This document shows, in pieces, positions 4,799 to 12,713 of a stretch of 64,000 nt of DNA. Below the pieces are notes generated by a model. That model was not told where the DNA came from, searched no databases, and saw only the letters and a program-made list of their open reading frames with translations. This stretch comes from Patellaria atrata CBS 101060 (lineage: Eukaryota), in the NCBI GenBank assembly GCA_010093705.1, contig MU006090.1, forward strand, positions 2,038,022 to 2,102,021, written 5' to 3'. The translations under genes and the position numbers were made by a program. Position 1 is the stretch's first letter, and each line of letters starts with the position of its first letter.

Positions 4799-5902
4799 TC
4801 ATGGGAGACCGCGACCCGAATTGACGGCTTTGGCCAGCTGAGAAGTGTCTGGTCGATTCTCTGTTCACGCAACTCAATTCGTCAATAATATTCCTGAGAA
4901 ACACCTGAAATACAGCAGCTGTGGCAGCAACGGGAAATTCCATGCATGGGAAACACGACGTACCTGCATATCTTTCGTAACTATCTAGATATAAGTCATC
5001 AGTGCTGGTGGTGGCCTGCACATGTTCGTTCTTCTCGATAGCTTCGACCCACTTTGCCCATCTAGTGTCCGGTTCTGGATCTGGCCATCCTCGATATGGC
5101 TTCAATACTCTGTTAAGACGTATGATCCAAGGCGCGATCTGGACATCTACAAAGCTCACGTCTGATCCGAGAAAGAAGGGACCTCCACCAACTGCAGCAT
5201 CAAGTAACTTGGATATCTCAGTCTTAAGCTCTCCCGCGAGGTCCATCTGCTTGTTTACATCTTGCTCTTGCAAATATCGATAAAAACTGGGGATTACATG
5301 CCGATTGATCTATGAAAATCTGAGTCAGTTGTGTTCAGGGCCGTGGGCTGGGGTCTATCACATGGTCACTCCAAAGACGGCTATATGCCCTGCCTTTGGC
5401 ATCTGAAGGAAGTAGTGATTGTCCAACATTTAGGTCTTCCAGCTAGAATAGATGGTCAACATATCCTTGAACGGAAATCTGGTTAAGTCTTAACTCACAT
5501 ATTCCATCAATACCGTACTTTCGTAGCAGCCCCAATCTCCATGTCTCAAGGCTGGAACTAGGCCTCGTGGATTGACGTCCAGAAGAGATTGTGGCTTTTT
5601 GTACGGATCGACTTCAATATACTGATATGGAATCCCTTTTGCTTCTAAAGAGATCCATACTCGTTGGACAAACGGGCTATTGGAGAAGAATGTCAACTTT
5701 TGGCCCTATCTGCGAGCACTTACACGGTAACGAAAATACAGATCACATCCTAAACGGTAAGACCCATAACTTACCAAAAGCAACTGCCATAGAGCTTTAA
5801 ATCTTCTTCTGCCGAATGCCTTTTTACAGTATTCAGAGCAGTTCCGGTAGCTTTTTTGTGATAAGTCTTCTTTTCAGTCCGGCTTTTGTCAGCTTCTGTC
5901 AT
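4799..5902 (-). CDS. Glutathione S-transferase (omega-like, CPF active site), multi-exon
   Basis: Spliced translation MTEADK...LKLYGSCFCPFVQRVWISLEAKGIPYQYIEVDPYKKP...NPRGLVPAL...ESTVLMEY; C-terminal domain GPFFLG...DVQIAPW...RGLP*. GT-AG introns. Confidence 0.9.
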
Positions 5903-6054
5903 ATTTCAATTATAGTGCAGAATTTATTTGTGAAATTGAACGAGGATTTTCTTCTCGAAAGTGTTTAAAAGCTAGGCTACCTCCCCTTTTGGACCGAATA
6001 TAAGTTTTGGTGCCCCGCACTTTCGGATGGGTAGGAATGTTCTGTGCGATGACG

Positions 6055-7244
6055 TTATAAAGATGAAATATCACAAACCTCAGCTTGTTTCTTTTCCTTT
6101 TCGTCTTTCACAGCGAATCTAATTACGCTGTTCTTTTTAATTCTGTCGGAATCTTGCAATGTGTGTTTATGCCCTCCGGATACACCATCATTCTTTCCAT
6201 TACCGTTATTTCCGTTCACTCTCTGTATGGTATAATACTTCCCACTATATATAGGGTTTGCCCCCATAGTGTTAGGCGGTGAAGCGATAGTGTTTATGGG
6301 CCATAGAGACCCTCCTGAGGTGAATGTTTCGACAGAAGCTTGTGAGTAGAAGGTCTGTGTTTGCTGAGCAACACACTGATCAGGTCCACTAGCCTGAACA
6401 AAAAGCTCTGGTGGCAAAGCTCCTGGTTGATACTCTGTGATCTTAATCTTCACATCGCAGAGATTCAATTCCCGCGCTACTCTCTTTCGCTTTTTCTTAG
6501 TTGGATCATCGGACTTCTTCGTTCCTGGGGGTCGACCTTTCAAACGACAATCCCAGTAATAGGACTTGAAAGGCTTCCGCTTATATCTTTGAGTTGACCG
6601 ATGGGAATAAACATTATCGACGTGAGGAAAATAAGTCAAAAACCTAAGTCAATATCTAATTTAGTTCACCGGGCCAGATGGAAGTCCCATTTGACGTACT
6701 GTTCCTCTGTCATTACGATTGTTTCATTGATATTGAATAATCGTTCCCTCCAAACATCAAGATCTGGAGGGTCTTTAATGTGCAGAAATCCATGCAAGGT
6801 ATCTTCTGTTTGATCTGCTACTTCTGTTTGATCGGTTATGGAGAATATCGGAGATTCTTGTCGTGGTTCGGGGACAGCATTTTGCTGTGGAGCGAGACTA
6901 AATTGAGTTGTAGTAGTGTTAAGCTGCTGATTATTGAAGGCCTGTGCAACCGAATGAGGTTGTATTGGTAGACTTTGGGCTACGCCATGGCTAAAGCCGT
7001 ATGTGATATCTGGGTGAAGCGGATGGGCCTGAGTTCCGCCCTGTAGAGGCTGAACGGCTTGAGTATATCGCTGTGGATAAGAATTAATGTTTGCTAAACC
7101 GAAACTGGGAAGCTCCGGCGGAAGACTGTTCAGATCATGTTGCAGTAAAGCTGAACCTTGAGGATGGGCGAGACCATGTAAAATAGCCGGTTGAAGAATA
7201 CGTTGGACTGCTGGCTGTAATGGCCGATGATGAGCAGCAGACAT
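6055..7244 (-). CDS. Putative DNA-binding protein with a WRKY/GCM/FAR1/AFT-like zinc ribbon; may splice onto the downstream GST
   Basis: Two ORFs joined by a short GTACGT...TAG intron near 6645-6700. Motif YYWDCRLKG...KKKRKRVARELNLCDVKIKITEY...GGHKHTL (C...C...HxH plus a basic NLS). Q/P/H-rich N-terminus. Confidence 0.75.
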
Positions 7245-7989: not shown

Positions 7990-8345
7990 CCGGGCTATTG
8001 AAAACGACCTAGTTGCACGAAACAACTCAGCTGTGCAGAATGACTGGGTTGTACAGAACAACTGATCTGTGCGAATTGACCCAGCTGTACAAATCCACCG
8101 AGCTGTACATAATAACCGAGCTGTGCAAAAGGACCAAGCTGCATAAGATGGCTGAATAGTACGAAGGACTAGACGGTATGGGATGACTAAATCTGCGAAA
8201 AGACTCCATGTACCATAAAGACGCCACTGTAGGAGACAACTTAACTGTGCAAAATGAAGCGACTGCGTAGTATAAAATGAGCAGAATTCACAGAAGAGTG
8301 AGCGGAACGAACACAATGAGTAGACTGCATTGAATGAATAGACTA
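7990..8345 (-). repeat. Degenerate 18-bp tandem repeat, probably a disrupted hexapeptide-repeat gene
   Basis: Consecutive plus-strand 18-mers: gctgtgcagaatgactgg, gttgtacagaacaactga, tctgtgcgaattgaccca, gctgtacaaatccaccga, gctgtacataataaccga, gctgtgcaaaaggaccaa. A minus frame reads MQLGPFAQLGYYVQLGGFVQLGQFAQISCSVQPSHSAQLSCFVQLGRF, with flanking stops. Confidence 0.7.
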
Positions 8346-8971: not shown

Positions 8972-9910
8972 ATGCCCGCGAGAAAGAGTAATGTCTCTAC
9001 AGCATCTGCCGTGGATGACAGTCCGGCGCGGGAATCAATGAGCGTCGAGGTAAAGATACATAGACTAGTTGCTCAATTCTTCATGTTAATGTCCCATAGG
9101 ATCTAAGTTTGCCTAGAACGATGGTTCAACGGCTTGCAAAAGGCGTCCTCCCACCCAACACCCAGATCCAAAAAGATGCCCTCCTCGCCATGTCCAAAAG
9201 CGCAACAGTATTCGTGAATTACCTCAGTTCCCAGTACATATACTTCTTTTCATCCCATACCATGCCAAATTCCTACACCCGTACGATAAGGCTAACAAGA
9301 TGATTGCTATAGCGCTAACGAAAAAGCACAATCCGCCTCCAAAAAGACAATTCAACCCAAAGACATTTTCGACGCGATCCAAGAGCTCGAATTCCCAGAC
9401 TTCATCCCGCGACTGGAAGCAGAGCTTGCGAGATATAATGCTGTTCAATGTGACAAACGGAATACCTACCGGCGCAAAGTGCGCGAAGAGAAAGCTGCTG
9501 CAGCGGCTGCGATATTGTCACAACAGGGCATCACGCCTGGGGATGCAAACTCCGCCTCTAAACCTGCCCCTGGCGCAAACCTCGATTCCTCGATGCTTGC
9601 GCCGGATATGAGCATGATATCGAACGGAACATCACGGCACGGCAACGATGGGGACGAACCTGCGTCGAAGAAGATGCGGAGGAGCGATGAAGAGGGGATC
9701 GATGATACTTTTGACGATGATGGGGATGAAGATGGGGAAGCTGGTGAAGGTGAGGGTGAGGGAGAAGAGGCACAGGACGATGAAGAAGTCGAGGATGATG
9801 TCCAGAGTGAGGATGATGAAGAGGGCGAGGAGCAGTTAGCGGAGGATCCATTGGAGGAAAGGAGAGAAGGCTTGGAGGAGGATGAGGAGTCTGGAGAGGA
9901 GAGTGATTAG
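8972..9910 (+). CDS. DPB4: DNA polymerase epsilon subunit D / CHRAC histone-fold protein
   Basis: MPARKS...EDLSLPRTMVQRLAKGVLPPNTQIQKDALLAMSKSATVFVNYL...KTIQPKDIFDAIQELEF histone fold with a long acidic tail. Introns at about 9050-9099 and 9234-9312. Confidence 0.9.
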
Positions 9911-10233: not shown

Positions 10234-10859
10234 TCACGAGACCCTACGATTCACCGGAACACTGTCGTCGAAGGGATCGCCATATCTGTCTAAATCCTCG
10301 TTAGTACCCTACTCACATTCAAGAAAAACCCTCAACGTCATTGGAATCTCTATGAACAACACTTACTCAGAATCATGGCATGCTTCTCAATCACCTGCTC
10401 CCAAGCTCTCGCGGCATCTTCCCTTGTCTTCTTGAACCTCCAAGCCGCACCCGGTGCAGTCTCCGGTGTATCCCAGGTATATCCCGTCTCCGGATCGGTT
10501 GAAATAGTACCAATTCCGTTTGCCTGAACACCTCCATCACTCTTGCCCTTCACACTCGAAGCGGCCGGTTTGTGTGACGTAATGAACCCTTTGAAGAAGG
10601 CGTCTAGGCGACCGGTGGTAGTGGATGGTCCTTGTGAGTTTGGTGGGGATAGTTCTGGGGAGCGCATGGTTTGCGATTGCGTCGGTGTTGTTGGTGATTC
10701 TTCGGCGTTTGAGGATTCGGCGCCGGGATCCATACGCTCGGGGGAGGGCGATCCCGAGGGCGAGGAGTGCATTGTACTGTCGCCATCGGCGTCGCGGTCT
10801 AGCTTGAAAAAGTTAGAGAGGAATGTGCGTCTGAGAAGAGGCTTGCGGAGGCGGGACAT
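10234..10859 (-). CDS. Hypothetical fungal protein (S/P-rich, C-terminal PGAAW...YGDPFDD motif)
   Basis: ORF 10350-10979 (ATG at 10859), an intron with a GTAAGT donor, and a final exon reading RYGDPFDDSVPVNRRVS*. Confidence 0.7.
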
Positions 10860-11850
10860 GTTGAAGTTATGGAGATAGAAGGTGGAAGAGCGAGAGGAGG
10901 TATGGGGGTGTACAAACCGAACGGGTCTACGATGGTTGCCATGGCTGATCTTCAAGTTTCGTTGTTTTGTATAGAGCAAATTTGGGCTTTATTAAGGTGG
11001 AAAATGATGAAGTAGAATTATTGTGAATGTAGTTATAGGCAACTTTCACGTGGAGGTGCGGGTGAAGCTTGGACTTCTCGTCTTAGGTTGAGTCGCCTTA
11101 TACGGTGGCCCGTGCTCAAGCTGGTTAATCCATGACCCAGCATCTTTTTTCGCCATTGTTCTCTAAGCTAGCTATACGAAAAGGACGCCGAGTTGACTGT
11201 AGAAGTCTTTAAGTCCCAAGAACAAGAATCGGAATCGAATCCGTTATACACACGCCGTGTACAGTAGCTGGGATTAATAGATCAGACCGAGGAAGAGACA
11301 TTCCTCCAACACCTACTGTACGCTGATAATCTAGAATAGCTTTGGCCTGGAAATATGGACAAGTAAATTCTGTACGGAGTTAGGTTTAAGAGTAAGTCGT
11401 TACGTGCACAGATAGAGTACAGTTTGAAGGAATTGAAATCTAAACAGAGAAAAGTAAGGAAGCTGTTGTGCACGTAAACCATACATTTATATAGCTGTTC
11501 GGTCCATCCTATATATAAGACCTCTTGGGGACTTTTCCAGTGGAAAGAATAATCTTTCAGAAACGTAGGAAGTGCTCCTGAGGTATTTACAAAATCAAAG
11601 CATATAAACGCCAGTGCAATGCACACTCCCGACCAAGGTTCGTCTCGTTTCATCAACATTATCGCGCTCTTCGAGAAAGCCAAGTATAGGTCTTATCGCT
11701 AGATTCTCGTTTAGCAACTCATTCCACCCCTCTTCCTTGGTGGGATTCCCCATTCCTTGGCATCCAGATCCAAAATTGTCTCGAAATCAGCATCCAAGTA
11801 AGTAAATATCACTCTTGATCTCTCCTTCCCTCATACCCAGCTTCCCTCAA

Positions 11851-12372
11851 TTAAATCAAGAAACCCATCAACCCTATTAGGAGTGTCTCCAAAAGTCCCA
11901 ACTCGTTCCTAACCGCTCCTCCTGTAGGGTTTCCATACACCGTGACCGGTCCAGTCTCAAACGTAAACCCACCCCCGGTAGTCGTCGGCAATACAAACCC
12001 GCCTAAGGATCCTGATAGTGTAGACGTTTGCGGAGTTTGACCAAAACCACCCACTGTGCCAGTGCATGCCGCGCCTTCCGGGCAGCATGCGATTTGCCCC
12101 GCTTGATCAGGCGAGCAGAGGGTTGAGTCTCTGCAACAGAAACCAACGGCCCCGATTTGTGCGCAGGAATTGTAACCGGAGGGGCACTCGTTGGATTGGC
12201 GTCGGAGCAGGGCTAGAGGGTTACCATTGAGGTTTGGATTCGGCGACCGTGAATCCAGGTCGGGAAGGGAGACTTCATGGATTGCGGGTTGGAATGGAGC
12301 GAGATGTGGGGAGGGATTGGCAGTGGCTAGGACGAGAAAGAGGAGCAGTAGTAATGGTTGTAAAGAGTGCAT
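11851..12372 (-). CDS. Small secreted Cys-rich, probably GPI-anchored protein
   Basis: Signal peptide MHSLQPLLLLLFLVLATA, Kex2-like RR, Cys domain CPSGYNSC...CC...C...CCPEGAAC, S/T/G stalk, hydrophobic C-terminus. Confidence 0.8.
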   Translation of the reverse strand: MHSLQPLLLLLFLVLATANPSPHLAPFQPAIHEVSLPDLDSRSPNPNLNGNPLALLRRQSNECPSGYNSCAQIGAVGFCCRDSTLCSPDQAGQIACCPEGAACTGTVGGFGQTPQTSTLSGSLGGFVLPTTTGGGFTFETGPVTVYGNPTGGAVRNELGLLETLLIGLMGFLI

Positions 12373-12713
12373 TGTAGTTCCTTGATGTGTTTTGTGCCGA
12401 AGATCGACAGGTGGATAGATTGGATATATCGTTTGACCAAGGCTGAGATGATTGCGCCGGTAAGTTAGAGGAGTAGTGCGGAGCAATTGATGGGCTGAAT
12501 GAGTGTCAGTAGGTATAGATTAAGGTGAGATAGGGACCATTGGTCACCTTGAGTTTGCTAAACCGACAGAGTTTATGTTAGAGATGGATATGATGTGAAT
12601 ATTGTGGTTGGAGAAAAGTTGGTGGAGCAGCCAGCGCACACGGCTCAATCGGGTAACTTGTTATGCACGAATTCAACAGGGCAACCATGTCTTGGCACTG
12701 ACCTCATCTTCCG

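Follow-up and report, generated by a model that had tools for sequence, protein, structure and literature searches.

We describe a gene in a 64,000-nucleotide (nt) stretch of genomic DNA from the dothideomycete Patellaria atrata CBS 101060 (assembly GCA_010093705.1, contig MU006090.1, 2,038,022-2,102,021 of the forward strand; hereafter the window). The gene encodes a zinc finger of the WRKY type joined to an omega-class glutathione transferase (GST), and the two halves are separated by an intron, here called the junction intron, from which a free form of the same GST also appears to be produced. We put the probability of this joint reading, a conserved zinc finger-GST gene with a free GST arising from its junction intron, at about 0.7. 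It draws on conservation of the fused arrangement in relatives, on contigs from related fungi that have the character of spliced RNA, on a predicted fold for the N-terminal half, and on an in-frame start codon and an upstream element that recur together in the junction intron.

When longer homologues of the exon 2 peptide were sought, a public protein of 623 amino acids (aa) with GST domains was recovered (P0001, M501DRAFT_1022452), which is 100% identical and includes ..EKKQAEKTYHKKATG.. within its sequence. A script that splices the window at GT..AG borders reproduced this protein letter for letter, with the exons listed below and with introns of 56, 209, 98, 56, 52 and 103 nt. The junction intron is the longest of the gene at 209 nt, the others measuring 52-103 nt. 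On the minus strand its donor reads GAG/GTTTGT, with the donor G at 6078, its AAG acceptor ends at 5870, and the exon resumes at 5869 with AAG ACT TAT CAC (KTYH). An initial annotation, made from the sequence of the window, had named the donor at 6078, a branch site at 5893-5888, the acceptor at 5870, the join QAE/KTYHKKATG and an ATG at 5902. All of these were read in the sequence, and the in-frame splice and outer coordinates of 4799-7244 that it proposed are exactly those of the annotated public model. The join between zinc finger and GST is already public in that form and is not new. The features of the gene are as follows.

4799..7244, minus strand: whole gene, seven exons and six introns, 623 aa, identical to public protein P0001
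6700..7244, minus strand: exon 1, low-complexity Gln/Pro/His-rich N-terminus, then the start of the conserved domain, PPDLDVWRERLFNINETIVMTEEQ, forming the predicted N-terminal helices
6644..6699, minus strand: intron 1, 56 nt, GTACGT..TAG, phase 2
6079..6643, minus strand: exon 2, WRKY-GCM1-like zinc-finger core with four predicted strands
6481..6498, minus strand: KKKRKR basic stretch, nearly invariant, in the predicted loop between strands 2 and 3
5870..6078, minus strand: junction intron, 209 nt, GTTTGT..AAG, phase 0; candidate internal promoter
6055..6057, minus strand: TAA stop seven codons past the donor, closing the zinc-finger-only frame (..QAEVCDISSL, stop) when the junction intron is retained
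6049..6054, minus strand: CGTCAT element inside AACGTCATC, 152 nt before the internal ATG
5900..5902, minus strand: ATG inside the intron, in frame with the GST and preceded by A at -3; would begin a free GST of 268 aa (MTEADKSRTEK followed by KTYHKK..)
5888..5893, minus strand: GCTGAC branch-site consensus, whose A lies 19 nt from the acceptor and whose bases also encode Ala-Asp of the internal frame
5775..5869, minus strand: exon 3, N-terminal extension of the GST, KTYHKKATG..LKLYGSCF; the next intron splits the active-site Cys codon
5499..5676, minus strand: exon 4, thioredoxin-like N-terminal GST domain with the active-site motif CPFVQRVW; GST_N_3, E-value 2.3e-19
5362..5442, minus strand: exon 5, region between the two GST domains
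4964..5309, minus strand: exon 6, helical C-terminal GST domain; GST_C_2, E-value 1.9e-9
4799..4860, minus strand: exon 7, C-terminal tail ..NRPDTSQLAKAVNSGRGLP, with the TGA stop at 4801-4799

Within exon 2 the putative metal-ligand codons are Cys at 6549-6547, Cys at 6459-6457 and His-x-His at 6171-6163. Past the zinc-finger core, the exon encodes a variable insert and then a conserved linker of 31 residues, helical in the model, which ends in ..EKKQAE. The KKKRKR loop, by its resemblance to such signals, is a candidate nuclear-localization signal.

Conservation of the fusion in relatives

Orthologues of the two halves proved to be adjacent or fused, an outcome that the initial annotation had left to comparison across related fungi. 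Pfam domains were tallied by hand for the best 120 long homologues: GST domains were present in 92, no domain in 27, and another, unrelated family in one. By organism name these homologues fall into the Dothideomycetes, Eurotiomycetes, Leotiomycetes, Lecanoromycetes and Xylonomycetes; no name from the Sordariomycetes, yeasts or basidiomycetes occurs among the 120, from which absence should not be read since no search was aimed at it. Among 80 genomic loci drawn from metagenomes with a zinc-finger profile, 73 had a GST match downstream on the same strand. The DNA of the other seven runs for at most 396 nt past the zinc finger, and one of these shows the start of a GST at a looser threshold. There was no case of a zinc finger without a GST among the 80 loci where the DNA extended far enough.

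Junction introns were compared at 59 sequence-unique loci, the donor being taken as the earliest GT codon in frame, counting from codon 19 past a D.VKKNS motif. Because this search itself demanded an in-frame GT, the phase 0 of these donors follows from the method, and the informative point is the fixed place of the donor: the upstream exon ends exactly 31 residues past the HxH in 38 of 46 distinct tails. Tails of 25, 26 and 29 residues (loci L013, L027, L006 and L079) arose where the script halted at an earlier in-frame valine codon, and tails of 30 and 45 residues are separate cases. The fixed position of the exon end implies that no variable linker lies between the two halves. On the acceptor side, AG stands immediately before K(T/S)YHKK in 53/59 loci (CAG 45, AAG 6, TAG 2); the remaining six have CAA, AAA or ACG at the anchor, which may be one codon off. 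An in-frame GT/AG pair could be a matter of chance in the window alone, but its recurrence across relatives indicates that it is not.

Intron-free versions of the fused frame were also found. A contig of 2148 nt (L051) lacks all introns and contains a single fused reading frame, and a locus in metagenomic genomic DNA (L062) carries the zinc finger and the N-terminus of the GST in one exon, with two later GST introns retained. The latter locus (L062:296-907) lacks both intron 1 and the junction intron, and has an insert of only about 22 residues between strands 3 and 4. A third sequence, P0003 (637 aa, from an assembled contig of 2405 nt), has none of the introns found in L001 and L002, genomic loci closely related to it. 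Since it aligns to these loci in intron-separated pieces, it derives from spliced RNA; P0046 is a similar case. P0003 joins ..KKKTQ to KTYHKK.. across the genomic sequence GAAAAG/AAGAC, the unusual AAG acceptor of the window again. A further protein, P0002 (431 aa, 11 members), is identical to P0003 up to the junction and stems from the same organism or a close relative. In P0002 the first intron is spliced out and the frame continues into the junction intron, which indicates that an intron-retained form, or an assembly joining overlapping transcripts, also exists.

Taken together, these comparisons indicate that the fusion is a conserved, ancestral state, and that the locus is one gene of filamentous ascomycetes and not two neighbours. 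The initial annotation had described splicing of an upstream gene to a GST as an option. This framing is to be reversed, as fusion is the conserved state and the zinc finger was never found GST-free.

A WRKY-GCM1-type zinc finger and an omega-class transferase

Within a library of 1.84 billion cluster representatives, 345 relatives of the N-terminal half were found, and sequence comparison did not assign the domain to a family. Pfam gave no match for the upstream pieces of the window, with WRKY, FAR1, AFT and GCM absent at E-values up to 1. Across 70 family members, WRKY (PF03106), FAR1 (PF03101), AFT (PF08731) and GCM (PF03615) were absent at E-values up to 10, and no recurrent relevant family of any kind emerged. 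A profile search of Protein Data Bank (PDB) sequences with the N-terminal domain gave a single chance match (E-value 0.66). Conservation within the family is nevertheless strong: alignments retain FQTYFPHVDNVYSHRSTQ.YKRKPF.SHYWDCRLKGRP..KKKRKR.ARERDLCDVKIKITEY, a variable insert, YTIQRVNGNG..HKH and then a predicted helix. The putative ligands are C62 (invariant), H158 and H160 (at least 90%) in one alignment (A1), and C56, C86, H143 and H145 (all at least 90% or invariant) in another (A2), with a spacer of 30 residues between the two cysteines.

A first structural model, of the window's exon 2 alone, was poor, with a predicted local distance difference test (pLDDT) score of 63 and strands at 13-19, 25-31, 65-71 and 136-143. 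With this model Foldseek returned nothing at E-values up to 0.001, and a wide structural search placed kinase N-lobes on top and AtWRKY1 at rank 7 (Z 4.3). It was replaced by a second model, of the L062 version, which has the short insert and includes the N-terminal helices (pLDDT 80.9, predicted template modelling score 0.74). This model comprises helices at 4-12 and 22-32, four long strands (36-43, 49-56, 89-95 and 121-126), the first directly preceded by helix 22-32, and a C-terminal helix. In a comparison with 48,161 representative chains, WRKY domains took ranks 1, 2, 11 and 18, GCM rank 14 and FLYWCH rank 21, the top two with a Z of 5.1 and 60/61 and 75/79 residues aligned. Foldseek with the second model gave no match at E-values up to 0.001, its best being AtWRKY1 (E-value 0.3). 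When its 858 candidates were re-scored, the eight best were all WRKY domains (Z 6.7-5.1), led by RRS1-R (Z 6.7, root-mean-square deviation (rmsd) 2.6 Å), AtWRKY18 (Z 6.2) and AtWRKY1 (Z 6.1); 73/73, 76/81 and 76/76 target residues were aligned in the leading WRKY matches. Language-model neighbours (ALS2CR8/CARF, FAR1, GCM, ZSWIM3_N and AFT) scored 0.75-0.88, under 0.9, and serve as a lead only; those that point to the Pfam families named above scored 0.75-0.81. Aft2 was in none of the structural match lists, which is uninformative either way.

Four antiparallel beta strands, the first defining feature of the WRKY-GCM1 superfamily, are present in both models, and conserved residues supply the cysteine after strand 2, the cysteine before strand 3 and the HxH after strand 4. 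The models thus indicate that the N-terminal half is a WRKY-GCM1-superfamily zinc finger of the insert-containing FAR1/MULE/Aft kind. The placement in this branch follows from the conserved C, C and HxH, the N-terminal helix and the 30-residue cysteine spacer, read with the description of the superfamily given by Babu et al. 2006 (PMC1702500). The domain is assigned to the superfamily by fold and not to any Pfam family, because no family profile matches. The domain is likely to bind DNA. The term 'zinc ribbon' used in the initial annotation was therefore a misnomer for a four-strand WRKY-GCM1-type finger, while its suggestion of a WRKY/GCM/FAR1/Aft relationship holds at the level of fold.

For the C-terminal half, the Pfam matches to GST_N_3 and GST_C_2 listed above correspond to a thioredoxin-like N-domain and a helical C-domain. 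The nearest solved chain is 6srb (E-value 1e-59, named only 'uncharacterized protein'), followed by Leishmania TDR1 and human GSTO1 (E-value 7e-22). The segment ..SCFCPFVQRVW.. aligns with ..WFCPYVQRSW.. of 6srb, giving a CPF/CPY cysteine motif that is conserved among fused homologues, and the N-terminal extension YHKKATG.. was also aligned with solved chains. These matches identify the C-terminal half as an omega-class, cysteine-type glutathione transferase. In the supplement to PMC4470081, a free basidiomycete GST carries the YHKKATG.. extension too, so the GST appears to be older than the fusion. The same supplement holds the Alternaria brassicicola orthologue AB07396 as a GST-only model; AbGSTO1 (AB04746), the enzyme characterized there, is a different gene.

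A divergent subgroup (P0079, L068 and L071) has a junction intron of only 55-62 nt, read through in frame in P0079, the N-terminal extension QKSTTRKASG and the active site ..GACTNPYVQRVW.., in which Cys-Pro is changed to Asn-Pro; it may represent a non-catalytic paralogue. At the other end of the protein, where the N-termini of homologues are of low complexity and cannot be aligned, a motif of the approximate form ..R.LQPA..Q.L.H.Q.. recurs (RPLQPAVQRILQPAILHGLAHPQ at 7150-7244 of the window, minus strand). It is also present in P0002, P0005, P0012, P0021 and L051, and could serve binding, degradation or transport as a short linear motif.

The junction intron as a probable source of free transferase

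The junction intron contains an ATG in the GST frame whose position and context recur in relatives. An open in-frame ATG lies at most 16 codons from the acceptor in 45/59 unique loci, against 3/59 and 7/59 in the two control frames, and ATGs in the last 60 nt of the intron number 53, 8 and 8 by frame. Removal of near-duplicates left 43 non-redundant introns, 32 of which have an in-frame ATG 5-16 whole codons before the acceptor. The base at -3 of these 32 start codons is A in 26, G in five and C in one, a purine in 31/32. The ATG-bearing introns measure 62-557 nt, with 30/32 at 167 nt or more.

Upstream of the ATG an unbiased k-mer count recovered ATGACG/CGTCAT in 25/34 long introns, compared with 15 for the 95th percentile of the maximum under shuffling. 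CGTCA(T/C) is present in 26/32 ATG-bearing introns versus 1/11 of those without an ATG, in 33 instances forward and three reversed, and CGTCAT lies mostly 105-190 nt upstream of the ATG. ATGACGT is the ATF/CREB-type (Atf1) site.

Sequences consistent with use of this start were found among short homologues of the GST half, which include many spliced GST-only frames of about 265 aa whose first codon is this ATG; their contigs measure 0.94-1.5 kb. One of them, P0271, begins MTDANQNNQSEK.. and is identical to the intronic frame of L001 and L002; it comes from the same species as P0003 or a closely related one. Another, P0356, has 66 members and a GST-only frame on a 1081-nt contig. Such contigs are too short to hold the upstream exon, which fits an internal transcription start. 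We infer that the locus likely yields a free GST in addition to the fusion, and that in most lineages, P. atrata included, the free form likely arises through an intronic promoter. The idea of one locus with two products, raised in the initial annotation, thus stands for the fusion as a gene model and as intron-free contigs in relatives; its proposal that the GST has a start of its own stands in so far as the ATG is conserved with a start context and GST-only contigs occur in relatives. Its further proposal, a coupling of glutathione or redox state to DNA binding in the fused protein, is conjectural. A junction intron with this dual role would explain why gene predictors disagree on the family and return fused, zinc-finger-only and GST-only models.

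GST-only orthologues from dothideomycetes (P0289-P0386, many with names of the Mycosphaerellales/Capnodiales type) have a longer conserved N-terminus, ..ELDPNQGGD..KKTYHK... At 8021-8141 of the window, some 780-900 nt before the start codon of the gene, lies a degenerate 18-nt tandem repeat of about 6.3 copies with the consensus AGCTGTACAAAATGACCG; on the gene strand the repeat unit contains CGGTCATT, one base off the intronic CGTCATT element. Long open frames adjoin the gene at 9296-9910 (plus strand), 10350-10988 (minus strand) and 11851-12519 (minus strand), one of them with a very acidic, Asp/Glu-rich tail, and none of the three has a Pfam match at E-values up to 0.01.

Interpretation and relation to known systems

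In the mechanism that we propose, the main product is the 623-aa protein, consisting of the Gln/Pro/His-rich N-terminus, the zinc finger, a linker of fixed length that is helical in the model, and the omega-class GST. The 209-nt junction intron would serve also as an internal promoter and first coding exon, with its oriented CGTCAT, which resembles an ATF/CRE half-site, sitting ahead of the in-frame ATG with A at -3; transcripts beginning inside this intron would encode a free GST of about 268 aa. The locus would in this way supply the same thiol transferase in two forms. One would be held on nuclear DNA or chromatin by the zinc finger and the KKKRKR loop, could there act on thiol chemistry that depends on glutathione or sense it, and would probably pair through its GST fold; the other would be the soluble, free enzyme. 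We regard it as most likely that the locus supplies a single cysteine-type GST both as a free enzyme and in this tethered form.

An annotation artefact, in which a separate zinc-finger gene (ending at the TAA at 6057-6055) and a GST gene (beginning at the ATG at 5902) were merged by predictors over a chance GT/AG pair, would account for the 27 zinc-finger-only models among the 120 best long homologues, for the many GST-only models in public annotation, including AB07396 as given in the PMC4470081 supplement, and for a start codon and promoter-like element inside the junction intron. It is very improbable in view of the intron-free fused contigs (L051, P0003 and P0046) and the single-exon fusion in L062, the phase 0 kept at the splice sites and the fixed end of the exon. 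Moreover, junction introns of 55-137 nt that have no ATG give the GST no start of its own, the read-through tails past the donor are unconserved (3 to 146 codons), and a zinc finger without a downstream GST was never seen among metagenome loci with enough DNA. The converse possibility is that the fusion is obligate and no free GST is made, the ATG and CGTCAT serving splicing, as branch context or intronic enhancer, or regulation of the whole gene. That the ATG stands directly ahead of the branch-site consensus would suit such a role, as would the 11/43 introns without an ATG and the chance that GST-only contigs are pieces of intron-retaining RNA of the kind seen in P0002. Yet the ATG is part of no branch-site consensus and still shows the excess of 53 in frame versus 8 and 8; the stretch from ATG to acceptor is open and varies in length by whole codons only (5-16); the -3 position is a purine in all but one of 32 cases; the GST-only contigs of about 1 kb that cannot hold the upstream exon are many and independent; and the junction intron is much longer than the gene's other introns (209 versus 52-103 nt). 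We regard an obligate fusion as unlikely on this evidence.

A further alternative concerns the function of the zinc finger. It might not belong to a sequence-specific transcription factor, and could instead be a domesticated, transposase-type WRKY-GCM1 module that targets the GST to the nucleus or chromatin, or that binds an RNA or protein substrate, so that the protein would be a targeted enzyme. The conserved active site of the GST is in keeping with this, neither an activation nor a repression domain was identified, WRKY-GCM1 modules occur in transposases as well (according to the account in PMC1702500), and the fold match is silent on function. On the other hand, the top solved chains in the structural lists are all DNA-binding domains, and the basic strand 1 (HRSTQRYKRK) and the Gln/Pro-rich N-terminus look typical of transcription factors. 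We consider this alternative a real, if less probable, possibility.

A number of points weigh against the joint reading. Proteins from run assemblies and metagenomes were taken as plain frames without intron modelling, and were checked on DNA for L051 and L062 only; a look for sequencing runs of RNA from P. atrata gave none, and both runs that matched the stretch are DNA contigs without joints, so statements about transcripts rest on relatives. A free form is not universal, as shown by the 11/43 introns without an ATG, seven of which measure at most 137 nt, and the short GST-only contigs could be assembly fragments of intron-retaining transcripts such as P0002. The ATG is followed by codons for Ser/Thr/Ala and then Asp, which coincide with the branch-site CTGAC and whose conservation may partly serve splicing. 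The loci compared are phylogenetically related and their counts are not independent events, and longer introns offer a 6-mer more room. For the zinc finger, there is the missing sequence match in Pfam and the PDB, and the structural Z-scores, at most 6.7, are below 8 and thus under the level that the tool deems safe alone.

A bolder reading would make the fusion a transcription factor that senses glutathione, redox state or electrophiles, with the GST toggling DNA binding and the free GST pairing with the fusion and tuning it. The linker, predicted to be helical, would then fix the distance between GST and zinc finger, and the GST would read the thiol state or add or remove glutathione. We think this reading improbable. 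If true, the locus would form a self-contained feedback circuit in which the free GST comes from an intronic promoter of the stress type (CGTCAT), and filamentous ascomycetes at large would share this circuit, among them major pathogens and industrial moulds.

In the public records examined, the only names given to this protein are 'glutathione transferase' and 'hypothetical protein', and its N-terminal half has no family assignment. Among the organisms that bear homologues are Aspergillus, Penicillium, Sclerotinia, Coccidioides, dermatophytes and lichen fungi. Recognition of a WRKY-GCM1 fold in this half points to candidate regulators in fungi that form a class of their own, absent from Pfam-based catalogues of transcription factors and covalently linked to a thiol-redox enzyme. 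The junction intron offers a clear and testable example of an intron that would act as promoter and first coding exon of a second product. Fungal WRKY-GCM1-enzyme fusions and intronic alternative promoters are each of a kind already known; the family described here is widespread and unnamed. We found no description of a zinc finger-GST fusion in the literature, some papers having been judged without full text, and SS1G_06623 appears there only as a row in an expression table, with no significant change.

The closest known parallels are the fungal members of the superfamily. Babu et al. 2006 (PMC1702500) describe stand-alone fungal WRKY-GCM1 versions and an isochorismatase fusion in filamentous fungi as a possible small-molecule sensor. 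The gene described here resembles the FAR1/MULE/Aft-family fungal proteins of that account in its four-strand zinc finger, N-terminal helical extension and long cysteine spacer, and in being a stand-alone, non-transposase gene of single-copy type fused to an enzyme domain. It differs in its partner, an omega-class GST in place of an isochorismatase (neither 'glutathione' nor 'GST' occurs in the paper), in matching no Pfam model of the superfamily, and in the large variable insert between strands 3 and 4.

Plant WRKY domains are the nearest solved structures (RRS1-R, 5w3x_D; AtWRKY18, 7z0r_A; AtWRKY1, 2ayd), with Z 6.7-6.1, rmsd 2.6-3.4 Å and 73/73 to 76/81 residues aligned. The ..SYYWDC.. segment and terminal HxH of the fungal domain resemble the ..SYYRC.. 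motif of WRKY domains. Identity is only 11-16%, however, the WRKYGQK strand is lacking, Pfam WRKY goes unmatched in the domain, and its cysteines are 30 residues apart, in contrast to 4-5 in WRKY domains. With human GSTO1 and AbGSTO1, the latter as presented in PMC4470081, the C-terminal half shares the GST_N plus GST_C arrangement, the CPF motif and an N-terminal extension; AbGSTO1 strips glutathione from a mixed disulfide, according to the same source. Those enzymes are free proteins, and AbGSTO1 is a paralogue of the present gene, whose own A. brassicicola orthologue, AB07396, lies outside the work of that study.

Regulators with a GST or thioredoxin fold that act in trans include yeast Ure2 on Gln3, bacterial SspA on RNA polymerase and Grx3/4 on Aft1/2, and SspA chains occur among the sequence matches of the GST half to solved chains. 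By analogy, all of these systems would tie a glutathione-transferase or thioredoxin-fold module to the control of transcription. In the known systems the module and its target are separate proteins, whereas here the GST is covalently joined to a candidate DNA-binding domain.

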